Positions 22,371 to 54,800 are shown, counted from the first letter of the stretch. The stretch: DNA of 64,000 nucleotides from Somniosus microcephalus (GCA_052327205.1 CM126207.1:178684001-178748000), one strand, 5' to 3'. Program-made: numbers and translations. Notes: generated by a model from the sequence alone, not told the origin.

Positions 22371-22759
22371 TATAAAAGCAGTTGAATATGCTCTGTCTAA
22401 TCTCAGACATGATGCCCCTTGGGTGAGGTGACGGAGCTCTGCGGGCAGTGTGGACCTGTACTCCAGCAGGAGGGACTGTCTTCAACAGCAGAGGAGAACC
22501 TGGCAAGAGAGAGTTTGAAGTTTCACATTCTTTTCATTGCCCCTGTATTTCATAACACTGAGTTGTAACATTTTGCAGGAATGCTTAAATTCACGAGTGT
22601 TTTGTAAAAGTATTTTAAGGTGTAACTTATTGCAGGTACAACTACGTATTTCAAAATTGTTCGAACACACTGTTCCAGTTAATGAATTCAGTTTATTGGT
22701 TCTTACAGGGCATGCTCAGTGTGTCTGCACTGCCACTTGCTGCTAAGTGTGTGTGCGTG

Positions 22760-23760
22760 TGGCTGGGGGGGTGCGTGTGGGTTTGGGGGTTTTCCGGGTG
22801 GCGGGGTTTGGGGACTGTGCGGGTGGGGCGGGGTTTGGGGACCGTGCGGGTGGGTTCGGGCGGGGGGGGGGGGAGGTGTGCGGGTGGGTTTGGGCGGGGG
22901 GGTAAGTGCGGGGGGAGGGCGTGGTGGGGCTGGGGGGCGCGTGTGGGCTTGGGGGTGGGGGGGCGTGTGGGTTTGGGGGCTGGGGGGCGTGTGGGTTTGG
23001 GGGCTTTGCAGGTGGCGGGGTCTGGGGACTGTGCGGGTGGGGGGGGAGTGTGCGGGTGGGGGGGGACTGTGCGGGTGGGGGGGGGAGTGTGCGGGTGGGT
23101 TCGGGCGGGGGGGGAGTGTGCGGGTGGGTTCGGGCGGTGGGGGAGTGTGTGGGTGGGTTCGGCCGGGGGGGGAGTGTGCGGGTGGGTTCGGGCGGGGGGG
23201 GGAGAGTGTGCGGGTGGGTTCGGACGGGGGGGGGGGGGGGAGTGTGCGGGTGGGTTCGGGCGGGGGGGGAGTGTGCGGGTGGGTTCGGGCGGGGGGGAGT
23301 GTGCGGGCGACGGGGGGGGGGAAGAGTGTGCGGGCGACGGGGGGGGGAAGAGTGTGCGGGCGACGGGGGGGGAAGAGTGTGCGGGCGGGGGGGGGGAAGA
23401 GTGTGCGGGCGGGGGGGGGGGGAGTGTGCGGGCGGGGGGGGGGAGTGTGCGGGCGGGGCGGGGGAGTGTGCGGGCGGGGCGGGGGAGTGTGCGGGCGGGG
23501 GGGGGAGTGTGCGGGCGGGGGGGGGTGGAGTGTGCGGGCGGGGGGGTGGAGTGTGCGGGCGGGGGGGGGGGGAGTGTGCTGGGGGGGCGGGGGGGGAGTG
23601 TGTGCGGGCGGGGGGGGGGGAGTGTGCGGGCGGGGGGGGTGGGAGGGGGAGTGTGCGGGCGGGGAGGGGGGGGGGAGTGTGCGGGCGGGGGGGTAGTGTG
23701 CGGGGGGGGGTTCGCGGGTTCGGGGGATGTGTGTGGGTTCGGGCGGTGGAGGGGTATGGG
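22760..23760 (+). repeat. G-rich minisatellite, unit ~GAGTGTGCGGGCG(n)
   Basis: Dozens of degenerate copies of GTGTGCGGG(C/T)GGG with long G runs. Confidence 0.92.
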
Positions 23761-23894
23761 TGGTGATTGCAGCACTCCCCATCTCAGACCCGTTTGTGTG
23801 CTGGTGTATGTGACTGCAGCACTCCCTTCTCTCGGGGATATTCTCACTATTCTGTAAATGGACTGCAGATGTTGCAGTTACACTCCTTTTATGT

Positions 23895-24336: not shown

Positions 24337-24511
24337 GCAGCTGTGCCTCCTGTTAAATGCCGAGAACATCTTCCATTCCATGGCTGAAATCCTCCTTCGG
24401 GAAGAAGACCTCAAGTTTGCTTCCACCATGGTCCAAACTCTCAACTCCATTCTCTTGACTTCAACAGAACTCTTCCAGCTGCGGAACCAGCTGAAGGACC
24501 TGCGTACAACG
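24337..24511 (+). CDS. VAC14: VAC14 internal coding exon (PIKfyve complex scaffold, C-terminal region)
   Basis: Pyrimidine tract + CAG acceptor ending 24336, GTGAGG donor at 24512; 175 nt encoding (R)[58 protein letters not shown], which I recognise as near-identical to vertebrate VAC14. Confidence 0.95.
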
Positions 24512-26239: not shown

Positions 26240-26358
26240 GAAAGCTGCAATCTGTTCTGTGGCTTGTATCGTTCCTGGTGCCACAACCCTGTTGCCACAG
26301 TCTCTCTCTGCTTCCTCACACAGAACTACAAACACGCCTATGATCTCATTCAGAAATT
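26240..26358 (+). CDS. VAC14: VAC14 next coding exon
   Basis: CAG acceptor ending 26239; 119 nt encoding [39 protein letters not shown](F), in phase with the previous exon and continuing the VAC14 sequence; donor GTATCCTTTT. Confidence 0.95.
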
Positions 26359-26368
26359 GTATCCTTTT
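26359..26368 (+). promoter_or_regulatory. U12-type (minor spliceosome) 5' splice site
   Basis: GTATCCTTTT directly after the exon; exact match to the U12 donor consensus RTATCCTTT. Confidence 0.88.
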
Positions 26369-32185: not shown

Positions 32186-32629
32186 TAGATCTGGCAGGGT
32201 CCCCGCTCCTTGATTCCCATTCAGTGAGGCCCCCACCAGTGGAAGGTCGAGATTTGGACACCTGTTGGTAACAGGATCTGTCTTGGTTGTGAGGCCCTCC
32301 ATGTCCAAGTAGCCTATCCGCTCAATGTTTAGGCTCACGCATGAAAAATGGCCAGGTTGAGAGGGCTCTTGCTAGCTGTGGAACCATTTGGTAGTGAGTT
32401 GTGTGGGGGAGGTGGAATCCTTCATTTCGACGAAGTGAAACTCACTTTGGAATACTTCAGCAGTTTAGGCGCACTTCTCCCCTCCGTTTAACCGCCCTCC
32501 TCTCCTGACTCTGGCTGGAGTATAGTTTCACCAGTACCCATACTGCAGGCCAATTGTAGCACCCACAGTCACAGATCCGGGTGAGTTTGGCTGGCTCAGC
32601 AGATGGCTGTGTATTACTCCTGTACTGCC

Positions 32630-32830
32630 CCTCACCGCACCAGCCGGTGCCCGCGCTGCGCCTCGCCGCACCAGCCGGTGCCCGCGCTGCGCCTCGCCGC
32701 ACCAGCCGGTGCCCGCGCTGCGCCTCGCCGCACCAGCCGGTGCCCGCGCTGCGCCTCGCCGCACCAGCCGGTGCCCGCGCTGCGCCTCGCCGCACCAGCC
32801 GGTGCCCGCGCTGCGCCTCACTGCACCAGC
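32630..32830 (+). repeat. 31-bp GC-rich minisatellite, ~6.5 copies
   Basis: Unit CCAGCCGGTGCCCGCGCTGCGCCTCGCCGCA in near-perfect tandem (period 31, e.g. 32641 and 32672). Confidence 0.95.
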
Positions 32831-33117
32831 CACTCGAGGCTGATTGATGGGTGAGAAAATAAAATGTTTAATCCATTCGCGGCAAAGATTCAACAAATGT
32901 CATGCAGCAGCAGGCTCTGCTTGGCCTTTAGTCACGTCTGGTTTGATAACTGCACATTCCACCTTGTCTCACCACATCACTGATCAGCAATGACTGAAAT
33001 CAAGCGATGTGTAATTATACCCTGACAGACGATGATTATTACAATAGGATTTGGGACTTCACTGAAGTACTTACCTCAGTCAGCAGGATACTGTCGATCT
33101 TCCAGTAACGAGGGGCA

Positions 33118-34532: not shown

Positions 34533-36261
34533 TAAAGGGATATGGGAATTAGGCGGGAAAGTGGAGTTGAGGTCAAAGATCAACCATGATCTTATTGAAT
34601 GGTGGAGCAGGCTCAAGGGGCCTTATGGCCTGCTCGTGCTCCTTATTTATGTTCTTATGCCACTATTTATTAGACAAGAGCCTATATACATTTTTTTCTT
34701 TACAGCTTTACAAACTTGCCCTCCCCACTAACCCAGGGTCTGGGGATTGAACCTGGGACTTCCTGGCCTGTGCAGCTTCGTGCTGTACCATTTGATGCCT
34801 TTACCCATTATGACATTGGAGCAGCTTAATATATATTAAGTATCCAGCTTGAAGGCAACCAACTGGAACACCAGGAAAGAAACAATTTACAGCAATGTGG
34901 CTAATGTATGAATAGAGTTATTAATAATGCAGCATGCAATTATGGAAATTTAATGAGCAATATTTACTGGGTTGCCTAGAATGAGAGTCACAGATAATTG
35001 TATGTACAGATTGTTAAAGCTGATGTGATGGATATGACTGTGGTGTTGGAGTGTCTTGTTGCAAACACAGCAGGGATCACAGGACCACTGCAGTCGTGTT
35101 GTTTTTCCCTCCCTGATGCCTGTGAGTTATTATAGTATAATGCCGTACAGCATTTAAGAAGCTCCGTCTTGCTTGCTGGTTGTCACTACCTTGTTCCACA
35201 GGAACTGAAGGCTAATCAAATCCACCAGTTGTGCATGAGAAGATAAAAAGAAAAAAAACTGGAAATCTGAACTGAAAACAGAATTGCACAGGTAGTCTGC
35301 CAGCATTAGTAATGTTTTAGCTGGGAACCCTTTTTCAGCTGTGACCGTTTGAGAGTTCAGATGAAGGAACAACAACAACAGCTTGCCTTTATGTAGCTCC
35401 TTTAACATAGTAAAACGTCCCAAGGTGCTTCACAGGAGTCCAATCAGACAAAACTTGACATAGAGTGAAAGAATGAGACATTATTAAGAGGTAGGTTTTA
35501 ACATAGAAACATAGAAGATAGGAGCAGGAGTAGGCCATTCGGCCCTTCGAGCCTGCTCCGCCATTCAATGAGATCATGGCTGATCATCCAAATTCAGTAC
35601 CCTGTCCCTGCCTTCTCCCCATATCCCTTGATCCCTTTAGCCTTAAGAAATATAGCCAACTCTTTTTTGAATATATTTAATGAACTGGCCTCCACCGCCC
35701 TCTGTGGCAGAGAATTCCACAGATTCACCACTCTGGGTGAAGAAATTCCTCCTCATTTCAGTCCTAAATGGCTTACCCCTTATCCTTAGACTATGACCCC
35801 TGGTTCTGGACTCCCCGGCCATCAGAAACATCCTTCCTGCATCTAGTCTGTCCAAACCTGACAGAATTTTATAAGTTTCGATGAGATCCCCTCTCAATCT
35901 TCTAAACTCCAGTGAGTATAAGCCCAATCGACACAATCTCTCTTCATACGTCATTCCTGCCATCCCAGGTATCAGCCTGGTGAATCTTCGCTGCACTCCT
36001 TCCATGGCAAGAACGTCCTTCCTCAGGTAAGGCAACCAAAACTGCACACAGTACTCAAGCTGCGGTCTCACCAAGGCCCTGTACAACTGTAGCAAGACAT
36101 CCTTGTTCCTGTACTCGAACCCTCTTGCTACGGAGGCCAACATACCATTTGCCTTCTTAACCGCCTGCTGCACCTGCATGCTTACCTTCAGCGACTGGTG
36201 CACAAGAACACCCAGGTCTCTTTGCACTTCCCCTTCTCCCAATCTATTGCCAGATTAGCGG

Positions 36262-36605
36262 CTCTTCTGTCTGTCTGTCCGCCTGGTCTCTATACGTTTG
36301 GAAGTTACAGAGCATACCGACGCGCGCGTCGCCTCAAAAGAAAGCTTGCGATTCCGGACCGGTCATAGGCGTATTTACGTTTCGGCCGGACAAAAATCCT
36401 GCCCGCGGTATCCCAAAAACGTTCAGCGTTCCGCTCATTAGCATCTCATTAGCGACCGTGTGACGTCGAGGTCTTCCTACAGTTGAGTGTCGAGTGACTC
36501 GACGATTGACCAATCCTACGCTTCGGTGACCTGACCGGTCGACCAATCGGTGCGTGTGTGGGCGGGCCTTATCCTGAACTGAGGTGAGTGGCCGCCATCT
36601 TGATT
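36262..36605 (+). promoter_or_regulatory. Promoter/first-exon-like cassette, copy A
   Basis: CCAAT at 36510 and 36543 (33 bp apart), GGGCGG box, GAG|GTGAGT donor at 36584, YY1 motif GCCGCCATCTTG at 36591; CpG-rich. Confidence 0.5.
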
Positions 36606-37131
36606 TTCCACGATTTTTTCCCCCACACTTTCTGTGTGTTAGGGAACTAAGGTAAATATTTCAATTATGTGTTAGGCAATTAATTAACAATTTATTTGAG
36701 TTTTATATTGTGTTTAGCAACCCCCCCCCTCCTCCTCCTCACCCTCGTGCAGGGGGGACTCGGGGCCTGAAGCTGAAAAAATTTCTCTCTCTCTCTCTCT
36801 CTTTCTTCCCTCTCTCTCTCTCCTTCTCCTCTTCCCTCTCTCTCCTTCTCCTCTTCCCTCTCTCCTCTTCCCTCTCTCTCCTTCTCCTCTTCCCTCTCTG
36901 TCTCTCTCTACTTCCCCCTCTCAGGTGTCGCGGACGGAGCGCGGGCGCGCCGCCCGAAGTTTCCCGCTCGCTAACGGCCTTGCCGGCTCTCGCGGGCCGC
37001 TCGCACTGACCGCGCATGCGCCGCCCGCACTCACCGCGCATGCGCCGCCCGCCCGCCCGCACGCACGCAGCGGCCGTCCATCAGCCGCGCGATACGCGGG
37101 GGACCTCAGCAACGGCACCGGACCTCAGGCG

Positions 37132-37581
37132 CTAGGCAGGGGGAGGGGCCGGAGAGAGGGACAGAGGGGAGTGGGGGAGGGGGAGGGGAGTAGGGGAGGG
37201 AGGGAGAGGGGGCAGGGAGAGGGGGGAGGGAGGGAAGGGGAGGGAGAGAGGGGAGGGAGGGATAGGACAGGGAGAGGACATGACAGGGAGAGGGGGGACA
37301 CACAGGGGCAGGGAGACCAAACGCCCCAAAATTGCCCTCGCGCCCCAAAATTGCCCTCGCAACGCGGGGCTCACTAGGCAGGGGGAGGGGCCGGAGAGAG
37401 GGACAGAAGGGAGTGGGGGAGAGGGGAGGGGAGGGAGGGAGAGAGGGGAGGGGAGGGAGGGATAGGACAGGGAGAGGACATGACAGGGAGAGGGGGGACA
37501 CACAGGGGCAGGGAGACCAAACGCCCCAAAATTGCCCTCGCGCCCCAAAATTGCCCTCGCAACGCGGGGCTCCCCAGCTAG
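37132..37581 (+). repeat. Tandem duplication of the 3'-terminal segment (37132-37373, 37374-37581)
   Basis: Both copies start CTAGGCAGGGG..GGCCGGAGAGAGGGACAG and end (CGCCCCAAAATTGCCCTCG)x2 CAACGCGGGGCTC. Confidence 0.9.
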
Positions 37582-37606
37582 TATATATATTGATAAAGAA
37601 TAAGAT

Positions 37607-37991
37607 CTCTTCTGTCTGTCCATTCTCTATACGTTCGAAAGTTATAGAGCGTACCTACACGCGCGCCACGTCAAAAGAAAGCTTACGATTACGGACCGGT
37701 CATAGGCGTATTTACGTTTCGGCCGGACAAAAATCGCGCCCGCGGTATCCAAAAAACATTCAACATTCCGCTCATTAGCATCTCATTAGCGATAGAGTGA
37801 CATCGAGGTCCACCAATCGTACGCCGGGTTGCTGGCGCGTGCGGCCGGGCCCCCCCTCCGGTCGAGTGACGGGGGTTTCGTCGGGACGATTGACCAATCC
37901 TACGCTTCGGTGACCAGACGGTCGACCAATCGGTGCGTGTGTGGGCGGGCCTTATCTTTCTGAACCGAGGTGAGTGGCCGCCATCTTGATT
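37607..37991 (+). promoter_or_regulatory. Promoter/first-exon-like cassette, copy B
   Basis: Diverged duplicate of 36262-36605 retaining both CCAAT boxes, the GC box, the donor and the YY1 motif. Confidence 0.5.
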
Positions 37992-38681
37992 CCATTCTTT
38001 TTCCCGCTTTCTGCGTTTTGCTTTTCAAACCTTCATTTCCAGCAAAAAAAAATTGCTTTTATTAAATTGTTTTTTAAAAAACTGAATTCATTTGTCAACC
38101 TGAAGATTCTTTTTCCTACCTTTCCCCGTTATTGTAAGGCCTCATAAACAAGGCCTCAAAGCCTGGGCCTTTCCTGCCCAGCCACGCCCGAGCTAGGTTA
38201 TTGTCCCACGGCTTCTGCTAAGCTCCCCCCACCCGTCGTCACGTAACCCGGGGCAACGGCGTCAGCCACGAGGGTCACGGGACATAAACAGGACGCGGCA
38301 TCTCTCTCTCTTCCCCACTCGGCACTTGCGGGGGGTGCGGGGCTCTCGGGAGTGCCGCTCTCGGGCGGGGCTTGGAGAGCGGGAAGGGTTACCCCCGGCA
38401 ACGGGGCCCACTGCGGCTCTTGGGCGGGGCTTGGAGAGCGGGAAGGGTTACTCCGGCAACGGGGCCCGCCGGCCGCCTTGAAACCAGCTCGGGAGGGCGG
38501 GAGTCAGCGCGCGCGCGCGCGTCAATTTCGGCCCGGACCGCAGCTAAGGTGAGTCCGGCCGGGGGGACTCAACGCGCTAGCCCGCGCATTCGGCCGGCCC
38601 TGAGGCGCTGATCCGCGGAGAGGGAGGGAGAGAGAGAGGGAGGGAGAGGAAAGAGGGGGGGAGGGGAGAGAGGAGAGGAGA

Positions 38682-41600
38682 CCCCGTCTCTCTCTCTTCC
38701 CCCCGTCTCTCTCTTCCCCCCCAGTCTCTCTCTTCCCCCCCGTCTCTCTCTTCCCCCCCGTCTCTCTCTTCCCCCCCGTCTCTCTCTTCCCCCCCGTCTC
38801 TCTCTTCCCCCCCGTCTCTCTCTTCCCCCCCGTCTCTCTCTTCCCCCCCGTCTCTCTCTTCCCCCCCGTCTCTCTCTTCCCCCCCGTCTCTCTCTTCCCC
38901 CCCGTCTCTCTCTTCCCCCCCGTCTCTCTCTTCCCCCCGTCTCTCTCTTCCCCCCCGTCTCTCTCTTCCCCCCCGTCTCTCTCTTCCCCCCGTCTCTCTC
39001 TTCCCCCCCGTCTCTCTCTTCCCCCCCGTCTCTCTCTTCCCCCCCGTCTCTCTCTTCCCCCCCGTCTCTCTCTTCCCCCCCCGTCTCTCTCTTCCCCCCC
39101 GTCTCTCTCTTCCCCCCCGTCTCTCTCTTCCCCCCCGTCTCTCTCTTCCCCCCCGTCTCTCTCTTCCCCCCCGTCTCTCTCTTCCCCCCCGTCTCTCTCT
39201 TCCCCCCCGTCTCTCTCTTCCCCCCCGTCTCTCTCTTCCCCCCCGTCTCTCTCTTCCCCCCCGTCTCTCTCTTCCCCCCCGTCTCTCTCTTCCCCCCCGT
39301 CTCTCTCTTCCCCCCCGTCTCTCTCTTCCCCCCGTCTCTCTCTTCCCCCCCGTCTCTCTCTTCCCCCCCGTCTCTCTCTTCCCCCCCGTCTCTCTCTTCC
39401 CCCCCGTCTCTCTCTTCCCCCCCGTCTCTCTCTTCCCCCCCGTCTCTCTCTTCCCCCCCGTCTCTCTCTTCCCCCCCGTCTCTCTCTTCCCCCCGTCTCT
39501 CTCTTCCCCCCCGTCTCTCTCTTCCCCCCCGTCTCTCTCTTCCCCCCCGTCTCTCTCTTCCCCCCCGTCTCTCTCTTCCCCCCCGTCTCTCTCTTCCCCC
39601 CCCGTCTCTCTCTTCCCCCCCGTCTCTCTCTTCCCCCCCGTCTCTCTCTTCCCCCCCGTCTCTCTCTTCCCCCCCGTCTCTCTCTTCCCCCCCGTCTCTC
39701 TCTTCCCCCCCGTCTCTCTCTTCCCCCCCGTCTCTCTCTTCCCCCCCGTCTCTCTCTTCCCCCCCGTCTCTCTCTTCCCCCCCGTCTCTCTCTTCCCCCC
39801 GTCTCTCTCTTCCCCCCGTCTCTCTCTTCCCCCCGTCTCTCTCCCCCGTCTCTCTCTTCCCCCCCCGTCTCTCTCTTCCCCCCGTCTCTCTCTTCCCCCC
39901 CGTCTCTCTCTTCCCCCCGTCTCTCTCTTCCCCCCGTCTCTCTCTTCCCCCCGTCTCTCTCTTCCCCCCGTCTCTCTCTTCCCCCCGTCTCTCTCTTCCC
40001 CCCGTCTCTCTCTTCCCCCCGTCTCTCTCTTCCCCCCTCCGTCTCTCTCTTCCCCCCGTCTCTCTCTTCCCCCCGTCTCTCTCTTCCCCCCGTCTCTCTC
40101 TTCCCCCCGTCTCTCTCTTCCCCCCGTCTCTCTCTTCCCCCGTCTCTCTCTTCCCCCGTCTCTCTCTTCCCCCCGTCTCTCTCTTCCCCCCGTCTCTCTC
40201 TTCCCCCCGTCTCTCTCTTCCCCCCGTCTCTCTCTTCCCCCGTCTCTCTCTTCCCCCCGTCTCTCTCTTCCCCCCGTCTCTCTCTTCCCCCCGTCTCTCT
40301 CTTCCCCCCGTCTCTCTCTTCCCCCCGTCTCTCTCTTCCCCCCGTCTCTCTCTTCCCCCCGTCTCTCTCTTCCCCCCGTCTCTCTCTTCCCCCCGTCTCT
40401 CTCTTCCCCCCGTCTCTCTCTTCCCCCCGTCTCTCTCTTCCCCCCGTCTCTCTCTTCCCCCCGTCTCTCCTCTTCCCCCCGTCTCTCTCTTCCCCCCGTC
40501 TCTCTCTTCCCCCCGTCTCTCTCTTCCCCCCGTCTCTCTCTTCCCCCCGTCTCTCTCTTCCCCCCCGTCTCTCTCTTCCCCCGTCTCTCTCTTCCCCCCG
40601 TCTCTCTCTTCCCCCCGTCTCTCTCTTCCCCCGTCTCTCTCTTCCCCCCGTCTCTCTCTTCCCCCCCGTCTCTCTCTTCCCCCCCGTCTCTCTCTTCCCC
40701 CCGTCTCTCTCTTCCCCCCCGTCTCTCTCTTCCCCCCGTCTCTCTCTTCCCCCCGTCTCTCTCTTCCCCCCCGTCTCTCTCTTCCCCCCGTCTCTCTCTT
40801 CCCCCCCGTCTCTCTCTTCCCCCCCGTCTCTCTCTTCCCCCCGTCTCTCTCTTCCCCCCGTCTCTCTCTTCCCCCCCGTCTCTCTCTTCCCCCCCGTCTC
40901 TCTCTTCCCCCCCGTCTCTCTCTTCCCCCCCGTCTCTCTCTTCCCCCCCGTCTCTCTCTTCCCCCCCGTCTCTCTCTTCCCCCCGTCTCTCTCTTCCCCC
41001 CGTCTCTCTCTTCCCCCCCGTCTCTCTCTTCCCCCCCGTCTCTCTCTTCCCCCCCGTCTCTCTCTTCCCCCCCGTCTCTCTCTTCCCCCCCGTCTCTCTC
41101 TTCCCCCCCGTCTCTCTCTTCCCCCCCGTCTCTCTCTTCCCCCCCGTCTCTCTCTTCCCCCCGTCTCTCTCTTCCCCCCCGTCTCTCTCTTCCCCCCCGT
41201 CTCTCTCTTCCCCCCCGTCTCTCTCTTCCCCCCCGTCTCTCTCTTCCCCCCCGTCTCTCTCTTCCCCCCCCGTCTCTCTCTTCCCCCCCGTCTCTCTCTT
41301 CCCCCCCGTCTCTCTCTTCCCCCCGTCTCTCTCTTCCCCCCGTCTCTCTCTTCCCCCCCGTCTCTCTCTTCCCCCCCGTCTCTCTCTTCCCCCCCGTCTC
41401 TCTCTTCCCCCCCGTCTCTCTCTTCCCCCCGTCTCTCTCTTCCCCCCCGTCTCTCTCTTCCCCCCGTCTCTCTCTTCCCCCCCGTCTCTCTCTTCCCCCC
41501 GTCTCTCTCTTCCCCCCCGTCTCTCTCTTCCCCCCGTCTCTCTCTTCCCCCCCGTCTCTCTCTTCCCCCCCGTCTCTCTCTTCCCCCCCGTCTCTCTCTT

Positions 41601-42062
41601 CCCCCCGTCTCTCTCTTCCCCCCCGTCTCTCTCTTCCCCCCCGTCTCTCTCTTCCCCCCCGTCTCTCTCTTCCCCCCCGTCTCTCTCTTCCCCCCCGTCT
41701 CTCTCTTCCCCCCCGTCTCTCTCTTCCCCCCCGTCTCTCTCTTCCCCCCCGTCTCTCTCTTCCCCCCCGTCTCTCTCTTCCCCCCCGTCTCTCTCTTCCC
41801 CCCGTCTCTCTCTCTTCCCCCCCGTCTCTCTCTTCCCCCCCGTCTCTCTCTTCCCCCCCGTCTCTCTCTTCCCCCCGTCTCTCTCTTCCCCCCCGTCTCT
41901 CTCTTCCCCCCCGTCTCTCTCTTCCCCCCCGTCTCTCTCTTCCCCCCCGTCTCTCTCTTCCCCCCCGTCTCTCTCTTCCCCCCCGTCTCTCTCTTCCCCC
42001 CCGTCTCTCTCTTCCCCCCCGTCTCTCTCTTCCCCCCCGTCTCTCTCTTCCCCCCGTCTCTC
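38682..42062 (+). repeat. 17-18 bp satellite (GTCTCTCTCTTC6-7)n, roughly 190 copies
   Basis: Direct reading; copy number estimated from length/period. Confidence 0.97.
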
Positions 42063-42179
42063 TCTCCCCCCTCAGTCGCTCTCTCTCTCTCTCTCTCCCC
42101 CAGTTTCTCCCTCCCCCCCTCAGTCGCTCTCTCTCTCTCTCTGTCTCCCAGTCTCTCTCTCTGTCTCCCAATCTCTCTA

Positions 42180-42625
42180 TCTCTTCCCCCAGTTTCTCTC
42201 TCTCTCCCCCAGTTTCTCTCTCTCTCCCCCAGTTTCTCTCTCTCTCCCCCAGTTTCTCTCTCTCTCCCCCAGTTTCTCTCTCTCTCCCCCAGTTTCTCTC
42301 TCTCTCCCCCAGTTTCTCTCTCTCTCCCCCAGTTTCTCTCTCTCTCCCCCAGTTTCTCTCTCTCTCCCCCAGTTTCTCTCTCTCTCCCCCAGTTTCTCTC
42401 TCTCTCCCCCAGTTTCTCTCTCTCTCCCCGTTTCTCTCTCTCTCCCCCAGTTTCTCTCTCTCTCCCCCAGTTTCTCTCTCTCTCCCCCAGTTTCTCTCTC
42501 TCTCCCCCAGTTTCTCTCTCTCTCCCCAGCTTCTCTCTCTCTCCCCCAGTTTCTCTCTCCCCCAGTTTCTCTCTCCCCCAGTTTCTCTCTCCCCCAGTTT
42601 CTCTCCCCCAGTTTCTCTCTCTCTC
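42180..42625 (+). repeat. 20-bp tandem repeat (AGTTTCTCTCTCTCTCCCCC)n
   Basis: Perfect period 20 over ~42191-42420, degenerating towards the gap. Confidence 0.92.
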
Positions 42626-42833
42626 CCCGTCTCTCTCCCCCCCTCAGTCTCTCTCTCTCTATCTCCCAGTCTCTCTCCTCCAGACTCTCTCTCCGTCTCT
42701 CTCTCTCCTCCAGTCTCTCCCTCCTCCAGTCTCTCTCTCTCTCCCCATCTCTCTCTCCGTCCCCCTCTCTCTCTCTCTCCTTCCCTCTCTCTCTTTCTCT
42801 CTCCTTCCATCTCTCTCTCTCTCTCCTTCCATC

Positions 42834-43132
42834 NNNNNNNNNNNNNNNNNNNNNNNNNNNNNNNNNNNNNNNNNNNNNNNNNNNNNNNNNNNNNNNNNNN
42901 NNNNNNNNNNNNNNNNNNNNNNNNNNNNNNNNNNNNNNNNNNNNNNNNNNNNNNNNNNNNNNNNNNNNNNNNNNNNNNNNNNNNNNNNNNNNNNNNNNNN
43001 NNNNNNNNNNNNNNNNNNNNNNNNNNNNNNNNNNNNNNNNNNNNNNNNNNNNNNNNNNNNNNNNNNNNNNNNNNNNNNNNNNNNNNNNNNNNNNNNNNNN
43101 NNNNNNNNNNNNNNNNNNNNNNNNNNNNNNNN
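42834..43132. other. Assembly gap (299 N)
   Basis: Run of N. Confidence 1.
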
Positions 43133-44249
43133 CGCTCCCTCTCTATCTTCCAACAACAACATGCCCTCAAAAAAGCCTCGGCACCGCCGGGCACCCCCAG
43201 CTAGTTAATAATCTGCCTTCCTGCTTTTGCCACCAAAGTGGATAACCTCACATTTATCCACATTATAGTGCATTTGCCATGTTTCTGCCCAATCACCCAA
43301 CCTGTCCAAATCGTACTGGAGTTTCACGACATCCTCCTCACAGCTTACCCTCCCACCCAGCTTTGTGTCGTCTGCAAATTTGGAGATATTACATCCAATT
43401 CCCTCGTCCAGATCATTAATATATAGTGTGAACAGCTGGGGTCCTAGGATCGATCCTTGCGGTACCCCACTAGTCACTGCCTGCCACTCGGAAAACGACC
43501 CGTTTATTCCAACTCTTTGCTTTCTGTCCGCCAACCAGTTCTCGATCCAAGTCAATACCTTGCCCCCAATCCCATGTGCCTTAATTTTGCATGCTAATCT
43601 CTTATGTGGGACCTTATCGAAAGCCTTCTGAAAGTCCAAATACACCACATCCACTGGTTCTCCCTTATCTATTTTACCAGTTACATCCTCAAAAAATTCC
43701 AGTAGATTAGTCAAGCATGATTTACCTTTTGTAAATCCATGTTGACTTCGTCAGATCCTGTCACTGCTTACCAAGTGCTCTGCTATTACATCTTTTATAA
43801 TAGATTCTAGCATTTTCCCCACTACCGAGGTCGGGCTTACCGGTCTATAATTCCCCGCTTTTTCTCGACCACCTTTTTTGAATAGTGAGGTAACATTAGC
43901 TACCCTCTGTTAAGTCTGTGTGTCCCAGTTATGCTTATTATAAATCACTGGACACAGACCACAAGAATAACTTTAACAGGTCTTTACTATTCGGAGGTCA
44001 GGGCTGAACTGCCCAGTAAATCACTACACAACGCTTATATACCGGTGTGGTCACCACCGGTACTACAGTATACAGCAGCCAAGAGAAAGTAGTACATCTC
44101 TTAAGGTAGTTCTCTTAAGGTGGAACAGGTTACATACACCACAATCCTCCCTTTTTAGCTTAACAGTTATATCCCCATTTAACATAACATAATAACATAT
44201 ATATATATATTATATACAACTTCATGCAAAACAGTTCAAAGATTCAGTC

Positions 44250-45564
44250 TCTGAGGAGGCCTCCTGATTCGAGTTGGATAACGCCTTTCAGGGGTCTCTG
44301 ATTCTCGTTGCTGGGGTGACTCATCTAGTTGATCTCTTATGGATTGGACATCATCATCAGGTACATTCACTTCTGAGGTAGATGCTTCAGGTTCACTAAC
44401 TTCTTCCACGGTTGTCTAAGCCATAACCCTGGGTTCGACCCTTGTTCTCGATTCTACCAGTTGGTCAGCATGACGCCGTATTACATTTTCACCAATATCT
44501 ACCGTGTACATCAGGGGTCCTTGTCTGGCCCGAATTGTTCCAGATTGCCATTTCTCGTTTTTATAGTCCTGGGCTAACACTGGTTGTCCTATTTCGAAAC
44601 TTCGCGTGGTCTTGTTATTTATATGCTGGAACTGTTTGTTTTCAACTTCCCTCCGCACATTTGGTTTTAACAAGTCCAACCTGGACCGCAACCTCCTGTT
44701 ATAGAACATCATGGCAGGACTTTGGTTTGTCACTGCATGAGTGGCGTTTCAATATGCCAGTAGGAATTTGTCCACCTTGTGTTGTAGTGGAATCTGATCT
44801 TCGCTCATGGCCTTTATTGCTTTTTTGAATGTTTGTACAAATCTCTCGGCCAACCCGTTTGTAGCCGGATGATATGGGGCAGAGGTATCATGTTTCACCC
44901 CATTCTTCTTCATGAATCTCTGGAATTCTTCTGACACGAACTGCGGTCCGTTGTCTGAACATATTTGTTCTGGCAATCCATTTCTCGCAAATATCGTTCT
45001 TAGCACCGCGATCGTCTTTTCCGAGGTAGTGGTAGTCATCTTAATCACTTCTGGCCATTTAGAATGTGCGTCCACCGCAATTAAAAACATGGAGTCCATG
45101 AATGGACCAGCAAAGTCAATATGTACACGTTGCCGTGGGGTTGAAGGCCATTCCCATGGATGCAGCGGTGCAATCGGAGGTGCATTTTGCACTTTTTGGC
45201 ACCCTGAGCAGCTTTTCGTCAGATCCTCTATCTGTTGGTCGATACCCGGCCACCACACATAAGCCCTAGCAAGGCTTTTCATCTTGACTCCCCCCAGATG
45301 ACCTTCTTGCAGTTCCTTTAGAACTCTCTTAACTTAGGAGGAATAATCACCCTTGTTCCATACATCAATGTTCCTTGACAGACGGACAGCTGTTCTCGTC
45401 TTGCTGAGAATGCTGGTAACAGTGGATCACCATGTGCTGGCCATCCCTTCACTGTCACTTCGTAGACCCGGGACAGTGTCGGGTCGTTTCTGGTTTCTCT
45501 TTCAATACTTGCATTGGTGACTGGTAAACATTCGATGATGGTCGAGTGAAATAACTCAACAGGG
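44250..45564 (-). pseudogene. Gypsy integrase region with frameshifts and a premature stop
   Basis: HLGGVKMKSLAR..CSGC..HIDFAGP..SDNGPQF..NGLAER split across frames; FLLAY*NATH stop at ~44749. Downstream end approximate. Confidence 0.85.
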
Positions 45565-48177
45565 TCAAACCGTCGGTGCCTCCTCCTCTGTAGGTAGTGG
45601 CAGGCGCGACAGCCCATCAGCATTACCATGCTGCTTTGTACCTTTGAATTCGATCTGATATTGATGTGCCCCTAGGAAAAGGGACCATCTCTGGAGTCTC
45701 TGTGCTGTCATCACCGAAACACCCTTCTTAGGGTTAAAAATGGATACCAACGGCTGGTGGTCTGTCAGAAGCATAAACTTTTGGCCCTGCAGGTAATGAT
45801 TAAACTTCTTTACTCCCCACACAAGGCTGAGAGCCTCCCTATCTATCTGAGCATAGTTGCGCTCAGCGGAGGTCAATGATCTGGATGCGAACGCAACTGG
45901 CCTCTCCAGGCCATTTGGCAACTTGTGTGAGAGTACTGCCCCAATACCATATGGAGAAGCATCACAAGCCAAACGAATAGGCAGCGTTGGGTTGAAGTGA
46001 GCCAACACTTCCTCTGAGGTGATCAATGCGTTGCTTTTGCGAAAGGCCCTCTTACAGTCCTCGCTCCACTTCCATGGTACTCCCTTCCGCAAAAGAGCGT
46101 TCAGCGGGTGCAGCACCGTGGATAAATTTGGCAGAAACTTATGGTAATAGTTAATCAACCCTAGGAACGACCTCAACTGGGATACATGAGCGGGAGCCTT
46201 CACAACAGCTTTGATCTTGTCAGGAGACTTATGAAGCCCCTCCTGGTCAATGACATGACCACAGTACGAGATCCGCTTCTGAAAGAACTCACATTTCTGG
46301 CGATTAACTCGAAGTCCATATTCTTTCAATCTGGTGAGCACCAGTTCCAAATTTGCAAGGTGTTCCTCGTCATCATCTCCTGTAATCAGAATATCGTCCA
46401 GGTAACATTGTGTGCCTGGAATTCCCTGTAATACCTGCTCCATGGCCCTCTGCCAAATGGCTGGAGCCGATGCCACTCCAAAAACCAGTCTATTATACCG
46501 GTACAAGCCTGTATGCGTGTTGATCGTGAGATACTGGCGTGACTCTTCCTCAACTTCCATCTGTAAGTACGCCTGCGCCAGGTCTATCTTGGTGAAGTGT
46601 TTCCCGCCAGACAACGAAGCGAAGATATCCTCAATCCGCGGAAGCGGATACTGCACCGTGTGAAGCACCGGATTAACAGTGATCTTGAAATCTCCACAGA
46701 TGCGAACCTTCCCCGGTTCCCCCGGCTTGTTGCTCGATGAACGCTTCATGACAGGGACAATGGGCGTGGCCCACTCACTCCAGTCTACCTTAGACAGCAC
46801 TCCTGAACGTTCTAGCCCTTCCAGCTCAGCTTCCACAGCAGGTCGTATCACATAAGGTACCGGTCTGGCTTTGAAAAATTTCGGGTTTGCATGTTCTTCA
46901 ACCTTGATGTTTGCCGGAATTCCTCTCGGTGTTCCCAGTCCCTGTTGGAACACCTCTTTAGCATCGTCCAATATTCTGGACAATCGTTTAGGTTTGACAT
47001 CTTTTTTACCGGAATCTACCGTTGGTGCTTTGAAGGAATGCCAGTCCATATTTATTTTCCTAATCCACTCCCGTCCCAGTAGTGGTGGACCTCCCTCAGG
47101 TAGCACATATAAGTCCATTCCTCGGCTTTCTTTGCCCTTGTGGACCACCTTTACCTCTATCTTCCCGATGGGGTATACTCTTTGCCCCGTGTATGTTTTC
47201 AATACAATCTCCATATCCCGTAGGGGAATATGTGGGAATAACCTTTTGTAATCTTGCTTATTCATGACCGTCAATGCCGATCCAGTGTCCAATTCCATCT
47301 TCACTTGGACTCCTGCTATCTGAAGTGTGACCCAGTTTGTTTGGAGGTCTGCTTCATTACCAACATTGTGTACTCTTAGACTACCCAGTTCATTACTACT
47401 GGAGTCTGAATCTGACTTCTGTTCGTTCGAACTGTTCTCTGTCACCTTGTGTACCTTTCTGTACTTTTCCTGCGGTGACTTTTTGTTGCTGGCCTTCTTT
47501 CCTGACCGGCATACTTCAGCTATGTGACCAAGCCTGCCACATTTTCTGCATTCCTGATTTTTGAACCAGCACTGGTTCTGATCGTGCGTTGTCTTTCCAC
47601 AACGATAACATTTTACTGTACCCAAGACCATTTGATTGGTGCTGAGTTCCGGTGACCGTAGCTGCATTTCCGCAGTGCCTCTCGCTGCGGCTTCATGCGA
47701 TGCTGCAATAGTGACAGCTTTATCAAGCGTAAGATCATTCTCCTCAAGCAGTCGCTTTTGTGTTCCTTTTAACAATCCACACACAAATTTATCTCTCAGT
47801 GCATCTGCTAGTCCTGTTCCAAATTGACAGTACTTTGATAGCTTACGCAGTTCAATTAAAAATTCAGCGTTGCTTTCGTCTTTCAGCTGCGTTCTTCTGT
47901 AAAATTTAAATCGTTCCGCTATCATCAGCGGCGTGGGGTTTAAATGATTTTTCAGGACAGTAACAATATTCGCGAAAGTCTGATCCGCCGGTTTATCTGG
48001 TGATAGAAGGTGCTTCAATAGCCTGTATGTCTTCGCACCCATTGAGCTTAATAAGGTTAGTGCTTTCTCATCATCTGGTACCTTATTTGCTTTACAATAA
48101 ACTGCCATGCATTCTACATACGTGGTCCAATCTTCGATATCGCTATCAAAGGTATTAATGTTCCCATGTTTAGGCAT
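45565..48177 (-). CDS. Gypsy gag-protease-RT-RNase H ORF (870 aa, truncated by frameshift)
   Basis: Two Cys/His knuckles (CYRCGKTTHDQNQC, CRKCGRLGHIAEVC), LDTGS protease, YLDD, LACDASPYG. Confidence 0.9.
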   Translation of the reverse strand: MPKHGNINTFDSDIEDWTTYVECMAVYCKANKVPDDEKALTLLSSMGAKTYRLLKHLLSPDKPADQTFANIVTVLKNHLNPTPLMIAERFKFYRRTQLKDESNAEFLIELRKLSKYCQFGTGLADALRDKFVCGLLKGTQKRLLEENDLTLDKAVTIAASHEAAARGTAEMQLRSPELSTNQMVLGTVKCYRCGKTTHDQNQCWFKNQECRKCGRLGHIAEVCRSGKKASNKKSPQEKYRKVHKVTENSSNEQKSDSDSSSNELGSLRVHNVGNEADLQTNWVTLQIAGVQVKMELDTGSALTVMNKQDYKRLFPHIPLRDMEIVLKTYTGQRVYPIGKIEVKVVHKGKESRGMDLYVLPEGGPPLLGREWIRKINMDWHSFKAPTVDSGKKDVKPKRLSRILDDAKEVFQQGLGTPRGIPANIKVEEHANPKFFKARPVPYVIRPAVEAELEGLERSGVLSKVDWSEWATPIVPVMKRSSSNKPGEPGKVRICGDFKITVNPVLHTVQYPLPRIEDIFASLSGGKHFTKIDLAQAYLQMEVEEESRQYLTINTHTGLYRYNRLVFGVASAPAIWQRAMEQVLQGIPGTQCYLDDILITGDDDEEHLANLELVLTRLKEYGLRVNRQKCEFFQKRISYCGHVIDQEGLHKSPDKIKAVVKAPAHVSQLRSFLGLINYYHKFLPNLSTVLHPLNALLRKGVPWKWSEDCKRAFRKSNALITSEEVLAHFNPTLPIRLACDASPYGIGAVLSHKLPNGLERPVAFASRSLTSAERNYAQIDREALSLVWGVKKFNHYLQGQKFMLLTDHQPLVSIFNPKKGVSVMTAQRLQRWSLFLGAHQYQIEFKGTKQHGNADGLSRLPLPTEEEAPTV

Positions 48178-51100
48178 CCTTGCAAGTTTTTAAATTTTTC
48201 TTTTTCTCAAAATGGTGGCTTCCCGCGCTTGTCGTCTTCCCCCGCCTACTAAACTGGCGGCTTCCCGCGCTTGGCGGTCTTTCCCGCGCTCGTCGTCTTC
48301 CCCCGCCGACTACAATGGCGGATTCCTGCGTTTGCCTTCTTCCCCCGCTGGCTGCAATGGCGATTGCCGTGCTGCTGCCATTCTCGCCTCCCCAGCGGTT
48401 CTCAATTCCCCGACGCTGCTTTTACTCCCCCGCGGTTCCCGTGGGCATTCACGCTTCCCCTGCTGTTGCGCCTCTCAGCCCCGCATGCAGCCCAGTCCTT
48501 TGCACCGGCTGCGTTTGAGTTCTCCGCGGCTCTCGTGCCTTAAGCTGCCCCAGTCGCTGCACCTCTCGGCCTCGATTGCAGCCCGGCCCTTTTCACTGGC
48601 CGTGGTCGAGTTCTCCGCCCTTTTTCCTCCTTTTTCCCTCCCCCACTCCACAGTCAACGCGGCCGACTTTCTGCTCGTGTCGCTGATCGGCTTACCCACC
48701 ACCGTGGTAGAAGGGATGATCACTGCCTGTCGCTGATGGAGGGCTTCGTGGTCAGAATTTTTCTTTTTAACCCGGGTTCTCGATGCCTCCCGTGCGATGG
48801 TGCTCAGCAGGATGATGAGGGCGGATGCCTCTTCTCGACGCCCGTTCTGAGGACGAAGCTGCCTTGGATGTAAAACTGCCGCAGGGTAAGATCGGACTCG
48901 TCGCCACTGTTAAGTCTATGTGTCCCAGTTATGCTTATTATAAATCACTGGACACAGACCACAAGAATAACTTTAACAGGTCTTTACTATTCGGAGGTCA
49001 GGGCTGAACTGCCCAGTAAATCACTACACAACGCTTATATACCGGTGTGGTCACCACCGGTACTACAGTATACAGCAGCCAAGAGAAAGTAGTACATCTC
49101 TTAAGGTAGTTCTCTTAAGGTGGAACAGGTTACATACATCACACCCTCCAATCCATGGGTACTGTTCCAGAGTCTATCGAGTTCTGGAAGATGACCAGCA
49201 ATGCAGCTACTATTTCCAGGGCCACTTCCTTAAGTACCCTGGGATGTAGATTATCAGGCCCTGGGGATTTATCGGCCTTTAGTCCCATCAATTTTCCTAA
49301 CACCATTTCCCTACAAATACTGATTTCTTTCAGTTCCACCCTTTCATCAGGCCCTATGTTCCCCGGCATCTCTGGGAGGTTATTTGTGTTCTCCTTTGTG
49401 AAGACAGAACCAAAGTATGAATTTAGTTGGTCTGCCATTTCTTTGTTTCCCATTATAAATTCCCCTGATTCTGACTGTAAGGGACCTACGCTTGACTTCA
49501 CCAATCTTTTTCTCTTCACATACCTATAAAAGCTTTTACAGTCAGTTTTTATGTTGCCTGCTAGCTTGCTCTCATATTCTATTTTCCCTTTCTTAATTAA
49601 TCCCTTTGTCCTCCTTTGTTGAATCCTAAACTGCTCCCAATCCTCAGGATTATTGCTTTTTCTGGCCAATTTATATGTCGTCTCCTTGGATCTTATGCTA
49701 TCCCTAATTTCCCTTGTTAGCCACGGTTGAGTCACCTTTTTTTTATTTTTATGCCAAACTGGGATGAACAAATTCTGTTGCTCATCCATTCGGTCTTTGA
49801 ATGTTTGCCATTGCCTATCCACCGTCAACCCTTTGGGTGCCATTCCCCACTCAATCCTACCCAACTCGCTCCTCAGACCATCGTAGTTTCCTTTATTTAA
49901 ATTGAGGACCCTAGTCTGAGTCAACTACTTCATTCTCCATCTTAATGAAGAATTCGATCATATTATGATCGCTCAGACCCAAGGGGCCTCGTACAACAAG
50001 ATTGCTAATTAATCATTTGTCGTTACATAATACCCAGTCTAAGATGGCCTGATCTCTGGTTGGTTCCTCGACATATTGGTCCAGGAAACCATCCCGTAAA
50101 CACATTAGTGGAAGTGGTATATAGACCTCCCAACAGTAAGGCAGAGGTTGGGGATGGCATCGTAGGTTTAAGGAGCATCGTAAAGGCGGGGAGGTTATGG
50201 GAGGGAATTCCAGAGCTTAGGGCCTAGACAGCTGAAGGCACGGCCACCAATGGTGGGGCGAAGGAAGTAGGGGATGCACAAGAGGCCAGAATTGGAGGAA
50301 TGCAGCGCTCTCGGAGGGTTATAGGGCTGGAGCAGTTTACAGAGATAGGGAGGGGCAAGGCCATGGAGGGCTTTGAACACGAAGATGAGAATTTTAAAAT
50401 CGAAGTGTTTGGGGACCAGGAGCCAATGTAGGTCAGCAAGCACAGAGCTGATGGGTGAACGGGATTTGGTGTGAATGAAGCGCTAAATGTCCTTTCTCCA
50501 TGCAGATGGCGACAGACCTGCGGTGTATTTTCAGCTTTTGTGCACAGATGTTGCCTCCTTTCCTTAGCTACCTGCTTGGGTCTTAACAGTATGTGGTGCG
50601 GGGAGATCAAAGAAAGGGGGGATCTGCAGCCTTCTATAGTTCAAGCATTCACATAGAAGGCCTGTATGAGGGGTACATGTTATAACTAAAGACTTGGTTG
50701 AATTTAACCTGTAGTGGGTTTCAATTGAGCGGGCAAGGGCGTATCGTGTGTGAAACTCACTCACTGGTGTAGGGTATTTTAACTCCCAGGCGTCTGTTAA
50801 ACGCTGCCGGTCCACTGCCTGTTCTGGTTGCGAAGTGGGCACAGAGCAGGCAAAGATCGGACATCCCTTGGCTGCCAGCCAGCGTTCAGGGAGGGCTTCG
50901 CAGGAGGGGGAGAATCCCAGATAGGGGAGGGCAGGACCTCCCCGTGAAGCCCAGAGGAGCATTCCCACTCCTCCTGACCCCACAAAGAAATGCTTTCACT
51001 TGTCGGGAGGGCCTCTTCATCCTTCCCACCAGCCGCCAACCAGCTTCCTCCTGGCGGGAAAGCCCTATTGGTGTAATAGGCCCCCGATTTGCACAAATTT

Positions 51101-51818: not shown

Positions 51819-54800
51819 TGTGATAAAAATGCTAACTTCCGGGAAGTTATGTCATCACTTCCTGTGAACTATGAACTATGAACTGTGTACATACCTCACT
51901 TCCTGTAAATGTCACTTCCTGTTGGACTGGTATAAATACTGGTCTGTTCAGTATTGTAAGAGGCTTCTACCAGAGGCATGGTAAAGACCTCTCTTGTATA
52001 TAGTGTGTTTATAAGTTACTTAAAGCTTACTTTAAAGTTACTTGATGGTCAGTCTCCTTTTCTTACATCAATTTAAGTAACTTAGTATTTACACTGACAA
52101 ATACTAGACCTTCAGACAAACTCGGAAGTTAAGGATCCAGGGAACCACCCATCATGGATAAAATCCTTAGACCTATTCGTCTGGACTTGGACCCGAATAC
52201 ACCAGCAGCTGGCAGGGTATGGAAGCATTGGTATCGTACTTTTGAGAATTTTCTGGATGAATGTAAAGTGGATGCTCCTGCTAAATTGAAGATACTTGTC
52301 AATTATGTGACCCCAAAAGTGTTCGAATATGTTGATGAATGGGATAATTACGAAGAGGTGATTCGGGCACTTAAGAAACTGTATGCGAAGACCCCAAATG
52401 AGGTCTATGCTAGACATCTACTGGCCACAGCCCGACAAGGGCCAGGGGAATCAATTGACGAATTCCTGCAAGAACTTCGCAGGCTCAGCGTAGATTGTAA
52501 CTTTCAGGCAGCCTCAGCTGAGCTGTACCGCCAAGAAATGATTCGTGATGCTTTCATCTGCGGGATTGCCTCTCCATTTATACGCCAGCGTCTACTAGAA
52601 AGTAAAACACTTGAGCTACAAAAAGCTTTTGACCTAGCTTGTTCACTGGATTTGGCAAAGAGAAATGCAGACCTCTATCAGCTGCCCAGATCTCGATCTG
52701 CTGCTGTAGCTGCAACCAGACAATTCAAGCGGTCTCAGGTGAACCCTATCATGGGGGAATCTAATTCTGATAATTCTGATGAAGAAGAGGAGGACGACCC
52801 CACTTTAGCAGCCTCTTGGCAATCTAGGAAGGAATGCTTCTTTTGTGGAGATGCTTTTCACCCTAGGAAAACCTGCCCTGCTCGCAATGCAATCTGCAGT
52901 TATTGCGGGAAAAAAGGACACTTTGCTAAAGTTTGCCTATCAAGGGCCTCTACGAGGGCCAATCCAGCTAAGGCCTACCGAGCTGCCCCAATTAGGGCCT
53001 ATCAAGATGCTCCAGCTAGGACCTATCAAGCTTCCTCTCGAGCTCTCTCCCGAAGAAGCACACCGAGAGTTTTAGCCACTCTCTGTGCAACGACACCAAT
53101 TACAGCTGCTTGCCCACAGAACCTGTCTCAGGCAGCCACAAAAATTTCAATTAAAGGGCATACCTTAGATGCCTTAATTGACTCAGGAAGTACTGATAGT
53201 TTCATTAAGGAACAGATTGTTGCGAAATTGAAACTACATGTCTTCCCATCGGACCAGGCAATTGCGATGGCCCAGTCATCACTTAATACCAGAATCTCTG
53301 GCTTTTGTGTTGTTGATATGACACTTCATGGTCGTATGTATCCCTCCACCCGACTTTCAGTGCTCAAAGACTTATGTAGTGATCTCCTCTTAGGGCTGGA
53401 CTTCCAAAAACAGCATAAGAAACTCACCATTGAGTTTGGTGGATCCAAACCCGGACTTACTATTTCTAATATACCATCTAAATTACCATTTTGTGCATTA
53501 TCAGCAGCTTCACTTGATGAACCCTCATTATTTGCCAGTATTCCGCCTCAATGCCAACCGATAATAACGAAATCGCGGCGCTTTAATCAGGGAGACCAAT
53601 CTTTTATTGCGGCTGAAATCTCTCGACTTCTAGCAGAGGATATCATTGAACCATGTTCGTCGCCCTGGCGGGCTCAAGTCGTCATTGTCAAGAACCCTCT
53701 AAAACCTCACAAACAGCGACTATGCATCGATTATTCGCAAACCATCAATCAATATACCGACTTGGACGCCTACCCATTGCCACGCATTGATGATATGGTT
53801 AATAAACTGGCCGAATACAAAGTGTTCTCAACTTACGATTTAAAAAGTGCCTATCATCAGTTACCCTTGAAGGTCTCAGATAAGCAGTACACAGCCTTTG
53901 AGGCTAATGGACGGCTGTACCAATTTCGTCGCCTCCCATTCGGGGTTACTAATGGAGTGGCTGTCTTTCAACGGGCAATGGATGGCCTGGTTAAGCAGGA
54001 AAACCTAAGGGACACTTTTCCCTATCTTGATAACATTACCATTGCAGGTCACGATCAACAGGAACACGACTCCAACCTCCAAAAATTTCGGGATGCCCTC
54101 CATCGCCGTAATTTGACCCTGAATGAATCCAAATCTGTTGAGTCGCAACCGACCATCAACATCCTTGGCTACTGCGTAGGCAATGGTATCATTAAGCCAG
54201 ACCCAGAAAGACTTCGCCCGCTCCAAGAGCTCCCGTCACCTAAGAATCCGGCTTCTTTACGTCGGGCTCTCGGTCTGTTTGCATACTACGCTAAATGGAT
54301 TCCTCATTTTTCGGACAAAATCCAACCCTTGCTGCATGCTAGATCATTTCCACTGGGAACAGCGGCTGTTGCAGCCTTTAACCTTCTCAAAAAACAGTTG
54401 GAGAAAGCGGCTCTTCACTCCATCGATGAGAATCTCCCTTTCGTGGTTGAATGTGATGCCTCGGAGGTGGCGATCTCGGCTACTCTGAATCAGGAAGGTC
54501 GTCCTGTAGCATTTATGTCCAGGACCTTACAAGGTGCCGAGCTACATTATCCTCCGGTTGAGAAAGAAGCCACAGCCATCATAGAGGCAGTACGGAAGTG
54601 GAACCATTTTCTAGCTCGCCAGCACTTTACATTGATCACGGACCAACGATCAGTCGCCTTCATGCTCGATAATCGAAAACGAACCAAAATTAAGAATAAT
54701 AAAATACAACTTTGGAGGATGGAACTGGCCTCTTTTGGTTATACCATTCTCTATCGGCCTGGCAAGGAGAATGTGGCCCCGGACACCCTCACACGGGCGT

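Follow-up and report, generated by a model that had tools for sequence, protein, structure and literature searches.

The transposase of the Helitron Helraiser, RepHel, is described as needing the left end of the element, taking a hairpin as its termination signal and inserting between A and T without duplication of the target; it also mobilises relatives that are non-autonomous, and it is able to run past the right end (PMC4778049). Helraiser circles carry a precise CTAG-to-TC junction, yet about half of those recovered are aberrant (PMC5876387). Composite Helitrons are known in bats (PMC4224331), and Xenopus Helitrons show TA-rich starts, minisatellites and capture of the 5' ends of genes (PMC12001565). 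With these systems in mind, we analysed an insert of 6,952 bp (as assembled, with a gap of 299 N included) that splits a CR1 long interspersed nuclear element (LINE) in a 64-kb stretch of cartilaginous-fish DNA (CM126207.1:178684001-178748000; hereafter the window), in an apparent intron of VAC14. Most probably, it is made of two Helitron-like units.

For chondrichthyans, Repbase holds Helitron-1_CM from the elephant shark and Helitron-1_AmRa and Helitron-2_AmRa from the thorny skate (PMC11417382), and the HELIANO survey found Helitrons of the HLE1 group in four of eight genomes (PMC11417382, supplement), with 11154 copies in Leucoraja, 4818 in Mobula, 1651 in Hypanus, one in Carcharodon and no row for three other sharks and a sawfish (PMC11417382). 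The method behind these counts misses families that have no autonomous copy (PMC11417382). DNA transposons are described as scarce in the elephant shark (PMC4350176, PMC6817897). An earlier description of our locus from its sequence, here called the original prediction, held that few Helitrons are characterised in this lineage; given the Repbase entries and the four positive genomes this is overstated for chondrichthyans, but it may hold for sharks (1, 0, 0 and 0 copies). No paper describing a shark Helitron family was found in the literature searched, which covered few subscription journals; texts on the spiny dogfish and on EDTA v2 contributed nothing of relevance.

An insertion with two hairpin-CTAG ends

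The host CR1 lies on the minus strand from 35504 to about 50120. Its sequence is interrupted at 36252 and is in register again from 43206, and the two strings at the break (the left one at 36241-36252) recur once, at 20734 and 20752, separated by 6 nt in an uninterrupted paralogue (19995-20964). Every string on which the original prediction had based the split stands where it had been placed, and both breakpoints were reproduced. Three uninterrupted CR1 paralogues in the window, two of them older, align across the insertion point and thus provide the empty site. Compared with its paralogue, the host CR1 differs in 53 of 749 aligned columns on the left and in 20 of 213 on the right; within a 606-nt stretch, 26 of the differing codons are synonymous and 17 non-synonymous. 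Two stops and two frameshifts break its frame within roughly 800 codons, leaving open segments of 310, 181 and 203 codons; with these four lesions, this CR1 copy is fairly young, and the nesting supports the proposal that the insertion is younger still than the copy that it splits. At the protein level, relatives of this CR1 reach no more than 53-78% identity; those with a name belong to batoids, to a catshark and to the elephant shark, and they do not place the host among sharks or rays.

Both the lack of a target-site duplication (TSD) and the lack of terminal inverted repeats (TIRs) are borne out: no direct repeat is common to the two junctions, and between the ends of the insert no inverted match is better than 7 exact nt, or 10 nt if one mismatch is allowed. 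By contrast, three long terminal repeat (LTR) elements in the same window have TSDs of 4-5 bp. At its right, CR1-defined breakpoint the insert ends in CTAG (43201-43204), preceded by an 18-nt hairpin (43175-43192) that lies 12 nt from the end; a second end of the same build, with an 18-nt hairpin at 37553-37570, 11 nt from the end, and CTAG at 37578-37581, lies within it. Each of these CTAGs is directly followed by T, and both ends thus agree with those predicted at about 43176-43204 and at 37554-37581. The second copy of the 5' block said to follow the internal end at once is also there, its TA tract and the block beginning at 37582.

The terminal hairpins fold at -5.7 kcal/mol. When all 280 CTAG sites on both strands of the window are ordered by the hairpin upstream of them, the three CTAG ends of the insert occupy ranks 1-3, and none of the eight GC-rich CTAG sites outside the insert reaches that energy. 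What exceeds chance is that a breakpoint defined independently by the CR1 falls on one of the three best of these 280 sites, all three of which lie inside the insert, with another one marking the unit boundary. Between the two terminal hairpins, 5 of 18 positions differ, and seven pairs are kept in both through a shifted bulge and a double change from C-G to G-C; when five bases were changed at random, the hairpin energy was preserved 422 and 326 times in 20000 trials, a comparison that involves only two sequences. No stable fold was found at the 5' ends. A further hairpin followed by CTAG at 38550-38580 (plus strand), in the second unit, is the fourth best of the 280 sites and overlaps a strong splice donor; it could be an older internal end or due to chance.

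The insert comprises two different units, U1 and U2 (Table 1), arranged head-to-tail with no host DNA between them. They have in common a 5' block of about 340-410 bp, which ends directly after a splice donor plus YY1-like motif, and their final ~30 nt. The two 5' blocks, A1 and A2, differ in 35 of 331 aligned columns (10.6%) and by five indels, while CpG decay is equal in both (6 and 6); the middles of the units show no blastn alignment to each other. U2 opens with a TA tract directly after the CTAG of U1. The original prediction had noted that the canonical 5' TC cannot be seen and that the left end seems slightly deleted, and we agree on both counts, since no TC is present and U1 is short of about the first 15-17 nt of the U2 start, with which the left 9 nt of the insert align. 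The 3' block of U1 is duplicated, 37132-37372 being found again as 37374-37572 with no difference in the final 113 nt; this recent duplication is bounded by CTAG, and its first copy has a shortened end at 37377. About 4.15 kb of the 6.95-kb insert is mini- or microsatellite, and only 72 nt of it lie to the right of the assembly gap. The 20-bp repeat variant at 42060-42833 (plus strand) forms a run of acceptor-like sites, each a pyrimidine tract plus CAG, in sense to VAC14, and supplies 8 of the top 14 acceptors of the crude matrix used here to rank splice sites.

Coding, RNA and foreign content was also searched for. The absence of an open reading frame, as originally claimed, holds in function, with no Pfam match in the 34 scanned frames overlapping the insert, but not literally, as six stop-free frames of 1164-1554 codons, outside that scan, traverse the minisatellite. 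Rfam gave nothing at gathering level in the window and two sub-threshold microRNA matches on a repeat edge only, no transfer RNA (tRNA) was found, and bacterial and archaeal genomes, phages and plasmids gave no match.

Table 1. Features of the insert, its host CR1 and the VAC14 exons. CpG o/e, observed/expected CpG ratio; TRF, tandem-repeat search.
Feature	Position	Strand	Remarks
VAC14 exon	24337-24511	+	tblastn
VAC14 exon, final one within the window	26240-26358	+	PF11916 match, tblastn
Host CR1 LINE, 3' part	35504-36252	-	92.7% to paralogue 19995-20745; 203-codon open frame
Unit 1 (U1), 1,329 bp, Helitron-like, 5' truncated	36253-37581	+	starts at CR1 break; ends in hairpin and CTAG, then T
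5' block A1, CpG-rich	36253-36605	+	35/331 columns differ from A2; CpG o/e 1.36; donor 36584
TC-rich tract with acceptor-like end	36784-36924	+	TRF; acceptor at 36925
GC-rich middle of U1, two NRF1-like palindromes in a 24-bp tandem duplication	36923-37130	+	CpG o/e 1.33
3' block copy B1, shortened internal end, hairpin 7 nt from end, CTAG then G	37132-37377	+	
3' block copy B2 with terminal end of U1	37374-37581	+	113 nt identical to B1; fold -5.7 kcal/mol
Unit 2 (U2), 5,623 bp including gap, Helitron-like	37582-43204	+	starts at TA tract; ends at CR1 break
5' block A2, TA-rich start, no TC	37582-37991	+	donor 37970
GC-rich middle of U2: three RFX X-box-like sites, GC boxes, 59-bp tandem duplication, donor 38549	38120-38615	+	
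Pyrimidine-rich 18-bp minisatellite, 224 copies, 95% matches	38682-42833	+	grades into 20-bp variant, then TC microsatellite
Assembly gap, 299 N	42834-43132		
Terminal end of U2: 18-nt hairpin, CTAG then T	43175-43204	+	
Host CR1 LINE, reverse-transcriptase part	43206-43907	-	RVT_1, E 3.9e-24

Origin of the two units

We consider it probable that the insert consists of two related, non-autonomous Helitron1/HLE1-type elements of one family that were mobilised in trans, and the proposal of a non-autonomous Helitron-like insertion is upheld by the CR1 nesting, the absence of TSD and TIR, the hairpin-CTAG ends followed by T and the shared 5' block. Among the marks of HLE1 elements (PMC11417382), a CTRR end, a hairpin of 16-20 nt situated 10-15 nt from the end, no TSD or TIR and an empty site are all found, while the 5' TC is seen at neither unit. 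The locus resembles Helraiser-Helibat and Heli1Xen1 elements in having a hairpin 11-12 nt before CTAG, T after it and neither TSD nor TIR, and in being non-coding. As for hairpin position, the 11 and 12 nt found here stand beside a 19-nt hairpin at 11 nt in Helraiser (PMC4778049), and their 18-nt length falls within the 16-20 nt at 10-15 nt from the end of maize Helitrons (PMC2267711). The TA-rich start is shared with Heli1Xen1 of Xenopus (PMC12001565), from which our units differ in the sequence pattern of the hairpin, as judged by its described pattern only; a short CTGT run close to the 5' terminus recalls the insect Hel-2 (PMC4344730), and internal minisatellites occur in several Helitron families (PMC12001565). 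Two different Helitrons that abut with no host DNA between them, read as consecutive insertions, were described in maize AF466202 (PMC2267711), where TC is kept at the junction whereas TA stands here.

In the mechanism that we favour, a RepHel encoded elsewhere would copy both units in trans. Following the Helraiser model, the enzyme would nick the 5' end and peel off one strand, pause at the subterminal hairpin, cut after CTAG and join this end to a target T without duplication. The likeliest course, with about half of the probability of the Helitron reading, is that U1 landed between A and T within the TA tract of the U2 start, either here or in a donor copy; such an entry would explain why TA follows CTAG and no TC is seen. 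A small deletion at the left junction would then have removed the first 15-17 nt of U1 together with 4-6 nt of CR1, and the minisatellite would have expanded inside U2. With its left end truncated, this copy would probably be unable to restart from there, and is thus probably immobile from that end. The chondrichthyan HLE1s are the likeliest source of the transposase; they belong to the same vertebrate class and Helitron group and, compared by names and counts only, may or may not be the same family. A 10-nt end motif is absent from the supplement text of PMC11417382.

Several observations weigh against this assignment. The target is not a clean A-T dinucleotide: according to how the junctions are read, either CR1 has lost 4-6 nt or there is one additional T, and TC is absent from both units, U1 starting inside the 5' block and U2 with TA. 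Because of the missing TC in either unit and the 4-6 nt missing from the target, we do not file the insert as a confirmed HLE1. Moreover, no more than 72 nt separate an assembly gap from the right end of the insert, the scanned frames hold no RepHel remnant, and blastn and nhmmer profiles revealed no copy of the 5' block, the 3' end or the middles elsewhere in the window. Each hairpin by itself is weak: folds as good arise in 9-16 of 200 shuffles (z -1.45 to -2.08), stronger hairpins exist at 19 of 1845 CTRR sites, and outside the insert the same energy is matched at 7 of 77 GC-rich CTRR sites. A 15-nt end pattern allowing two mismatches gave two matches, as many as in 11 of 100 shuffles, and is not rarer than by chance; only two ends are available for comparison. 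Taken alone, the 3' hairpin signal is thus barely beyond chance; in context, it is beyond it. The missing TC could be explained by truncation or nesting. As to the junctions, the left CR1 flank ends in A (in T in one shifted reading), and T follows CTAG in either reading; the simplest reading assumes one left deletion of ~21-24 nt, comprising 6 nt of CR1 and the U1 start, plus an extra T on the right, and the alternative a truncated start with a 5-nt loss on the right. A 7-nt inverted match spans the junctions (36251-36257 and 43209-43215). We had considered it as templated filler and dropped this idea since its left bases also align to the U2 start; the match is probably due to chance.

How the two units came to lie side by side admits more than one answer. 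They may have moved as one ready-made composite, RepHel starting at the 5' end of U1, bypassing the U1 ends and stopping at that of U2, a variant of the Helitron reading that we hold to be less likely than nesting. End bypass and composite elements are both documented (PMC4224331, PMC4778049), the first end of U1 is already degraded and passed over, the equal CpG decay of A1 and A2 is as expected for similar residence, and otherwise two independent insertions at one site in a large genome are required. However, the terminal hairpin of U1 is intact, and TA tracts offer many A-T targets, so that nesting needs no bypass. Very little speaks for the 'array' of the original prediction in the sense of a single element concatenated by rolling-circle replication, with copies that diverged later in place; we regard this as largely refuted. 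Although the units are head-to-tail with no host DNA between them, and tandem arrays are known (PMC12001565, PMC5876387), U1 and U2 are too different to be a concatemer: their middles are unrelated, TA instead of TC follows CTAG at the junction, and the 10.6% divergence of A1 and A2, with five indels, exceeds that of the host CR1 from its paralogue (7.1-9.4%), the LTR pair in the same CR1 differing at 2 of 236 positions.

Turning from arrangement to identity, an insertion of another kind that leaves no TSD appears improbable, be it a Crypton of the non-autonomous sort or repetitive, GC-rich DNA picked up when a double-strand break was repaired. The target loss of 4-6 nt and the 7-nt inverted junction match would fit error-prone repair, TC is absent, and Cryptons, which in fungi have terminal direct repeats of 4-6 bp, lack terminal repeats in animals; yet this reading does not predict a conserved hairpin-CTAG end followed by T precisely at the breakpoint and a second time where the units meet, and the alignment of the left 9 nt with the U2 start means that no filler is needed. 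For a non-autonomous HLE2 (Helentron/Helitron2-type) element it can be said that such derivatives often carry minisatellites and form arrays (PMC12001565) and that the right flank begins with TT. This assignment is nonetheless highly unlikely, as the inverted repeat of 11-18 nt expected between HLE2 ends (PMC11417382) is absent, a CTAG suffix is a mark of HLE1 (PMC11417382), and no site between two Ts in the paralogue fits both flanks. Slighter still are the prospects of a retroposed element (a short interspersed nuclear element, a Penelope-like element or a retrozyme), suggested by promoter-like content and tandem organisation but at odds with the absence of a tail, a TSD, a tRNA and an Rfam match at gathering level, and with the donor-to-acceptor intron-like sequence still present in the unit. 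Equally remote is an assembly artefact in which two loci were joined across the gap or foreign DNA was included: a 299-N gap does adjoin a 4-kb minisatellite in a multi-copy CR1, but the CR1 resumes within 6 nt of register, the sequence to the right of the gap is TC-rich at its start and ends in a homologue of the U1 end, and the searches of microbial, phage and plasmid sequences found no match.

Promoter-like and splice-like content in an apparent VAC14 intron

The blocks of the insert have CpG o/e ratios of 0.93-1.51, against 0.38-0.59 in the host CR1. They contain motifs that we take to be YY1, NRF1, RFX X-box, CCAAT, GC-box, octamer and cyclic-AMP response element (CRE) sites, chosen after the sequence was seen. 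Each of the 5' blocks has a 12-nt YY1-like site, matched in 0 and 1 of 2000 shuffles and without a counterpart in the 57 kb outside. The two NRF1-like palindromes of U1 (37012 and 37036) and the three RFX-like sites of U2 were each matched in 0 of 2000 shuffles, figures that are inflated by tandem duplication, whereas single CCAAT, GC-box and octamer-like sites reach P values of 0.01-0.08 and the CRE-like hexamer is not significant. By the crude matrix, the donors at 36584, 37970 and 38549 rank among the top six (2, 5 and 6) of 3501 plus-strand GT sites, 37970 being fifth and 36584 sixth, and the acceptor-like site at 36925 ranks sixth of 3722. The donors are predicted to be strong and, like the promoter-like motifs, are all in sense to VAC14. 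Judged by sequence, the CpG-rich blocks look like cassettes of promoter, first exon and donor; they may stem from captured 5' ends of host genes, or else represent a promoter that belongs to the family itself.

HelibatN3 and other promoter-carrying Helitrons of bats are comparable (PMC4224331, PMC4778049): they, too, are non-autonomous, lie in sense to a host intron and combine promoter-like sequence with a splice donor behind it. In bats the donor gene and the imposed splicing were shown, and the cassettes here are predicted from sequence. A more far-reaching proposal, and one that we consider rather doubtful, is that of a recently active true-shark Helitron lineage whose non-autonomous members carry captured promoter/first-exon/donor cassettes that differ between U1 and U2, and which possibly starts with TA instead of TC.

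Two VAC14 exons were found in the window (Table 1), and VAC14 residues 650-779 have no match in it by motif search or tblastn; that the insert lies inside a VAC14 intron, in sense orientation and with the next exon beyond 64000, is therefore what we infer. The intron so defined measures at least 37.6 kb. Of 11 named proteins compared, 4 are identical to both exons, from three sharks and an electric ray; the exons thus show a cartilaginous fish but are too conserved to separate shark from ray, and the 'shark' of the original prediction goes beyond them. The donor at 26359 fits the U12 consensus (taken from PMC8848931) perfectly, with T at -1, and the intron that carries the insert is thus apparently of the U12 (minor-class) type; a minor intron is present in mouse Vac14 (PMC8848931). 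From this donor on, the intron is packed with transposons and shows no exon up to 64000.

Neighbouring elements and significance

Three Gypsy-type LTR elements are found in the window. One (43908-49143, minus strand) sits in the same CR1 as the Helitron-like insert, at a distance of 700 bp; it has a 5-bp TSD, its LTRs differ at 2 of 236 positions, and the CR1 resumes past it at 49149. Another (51819-56365, plus strand) is very recent: its two 252-bp LTRs are identical, its TSD measures 5 bp, and a single open frame of 1315 codons encodes protease, reverse transcriptase, RNase H and integrase domains. The third (12216-17203, minus strand) has a 4-bp TSD and LTRs that differ at 6 of 346 positions, with CR1 fragments nested in one of them (about 12437-12775). 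Other GC-skewed tandem repeats comprise a TC-rich tract (21987-22334), a G-rich minisatellite (22747-23763) and a 31-bp repeat of 6.7 copies (32625-32831); no Helitron-like ends were seen at them, the last two having been inspected by eye (22747-23763 and 32625).

In summary, the insert is a familiar kind of mobile DNA, notable mainly for its promoter-like and splice-donor sequence. It represents one more probable Helitron family of cartilaginous fishes, for which the 5' block and the 3' end are ready probes. If the host is a true shark, the locus would point to recent rolling-circle activity in a group for which hardly any copies came out of an automated survey (1, 0, 0 and 0 in four sharks). 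If the cassettes are what they appear to be, they could impose transcription or major-spliceosome donors within a minor-class VAC14 intron of more than 37 kb. As promoter and donor capture has been shown in bats and capture of gene 5' ends in Xenopus, a chondrichthyan case would widen a known process and not add a new one.

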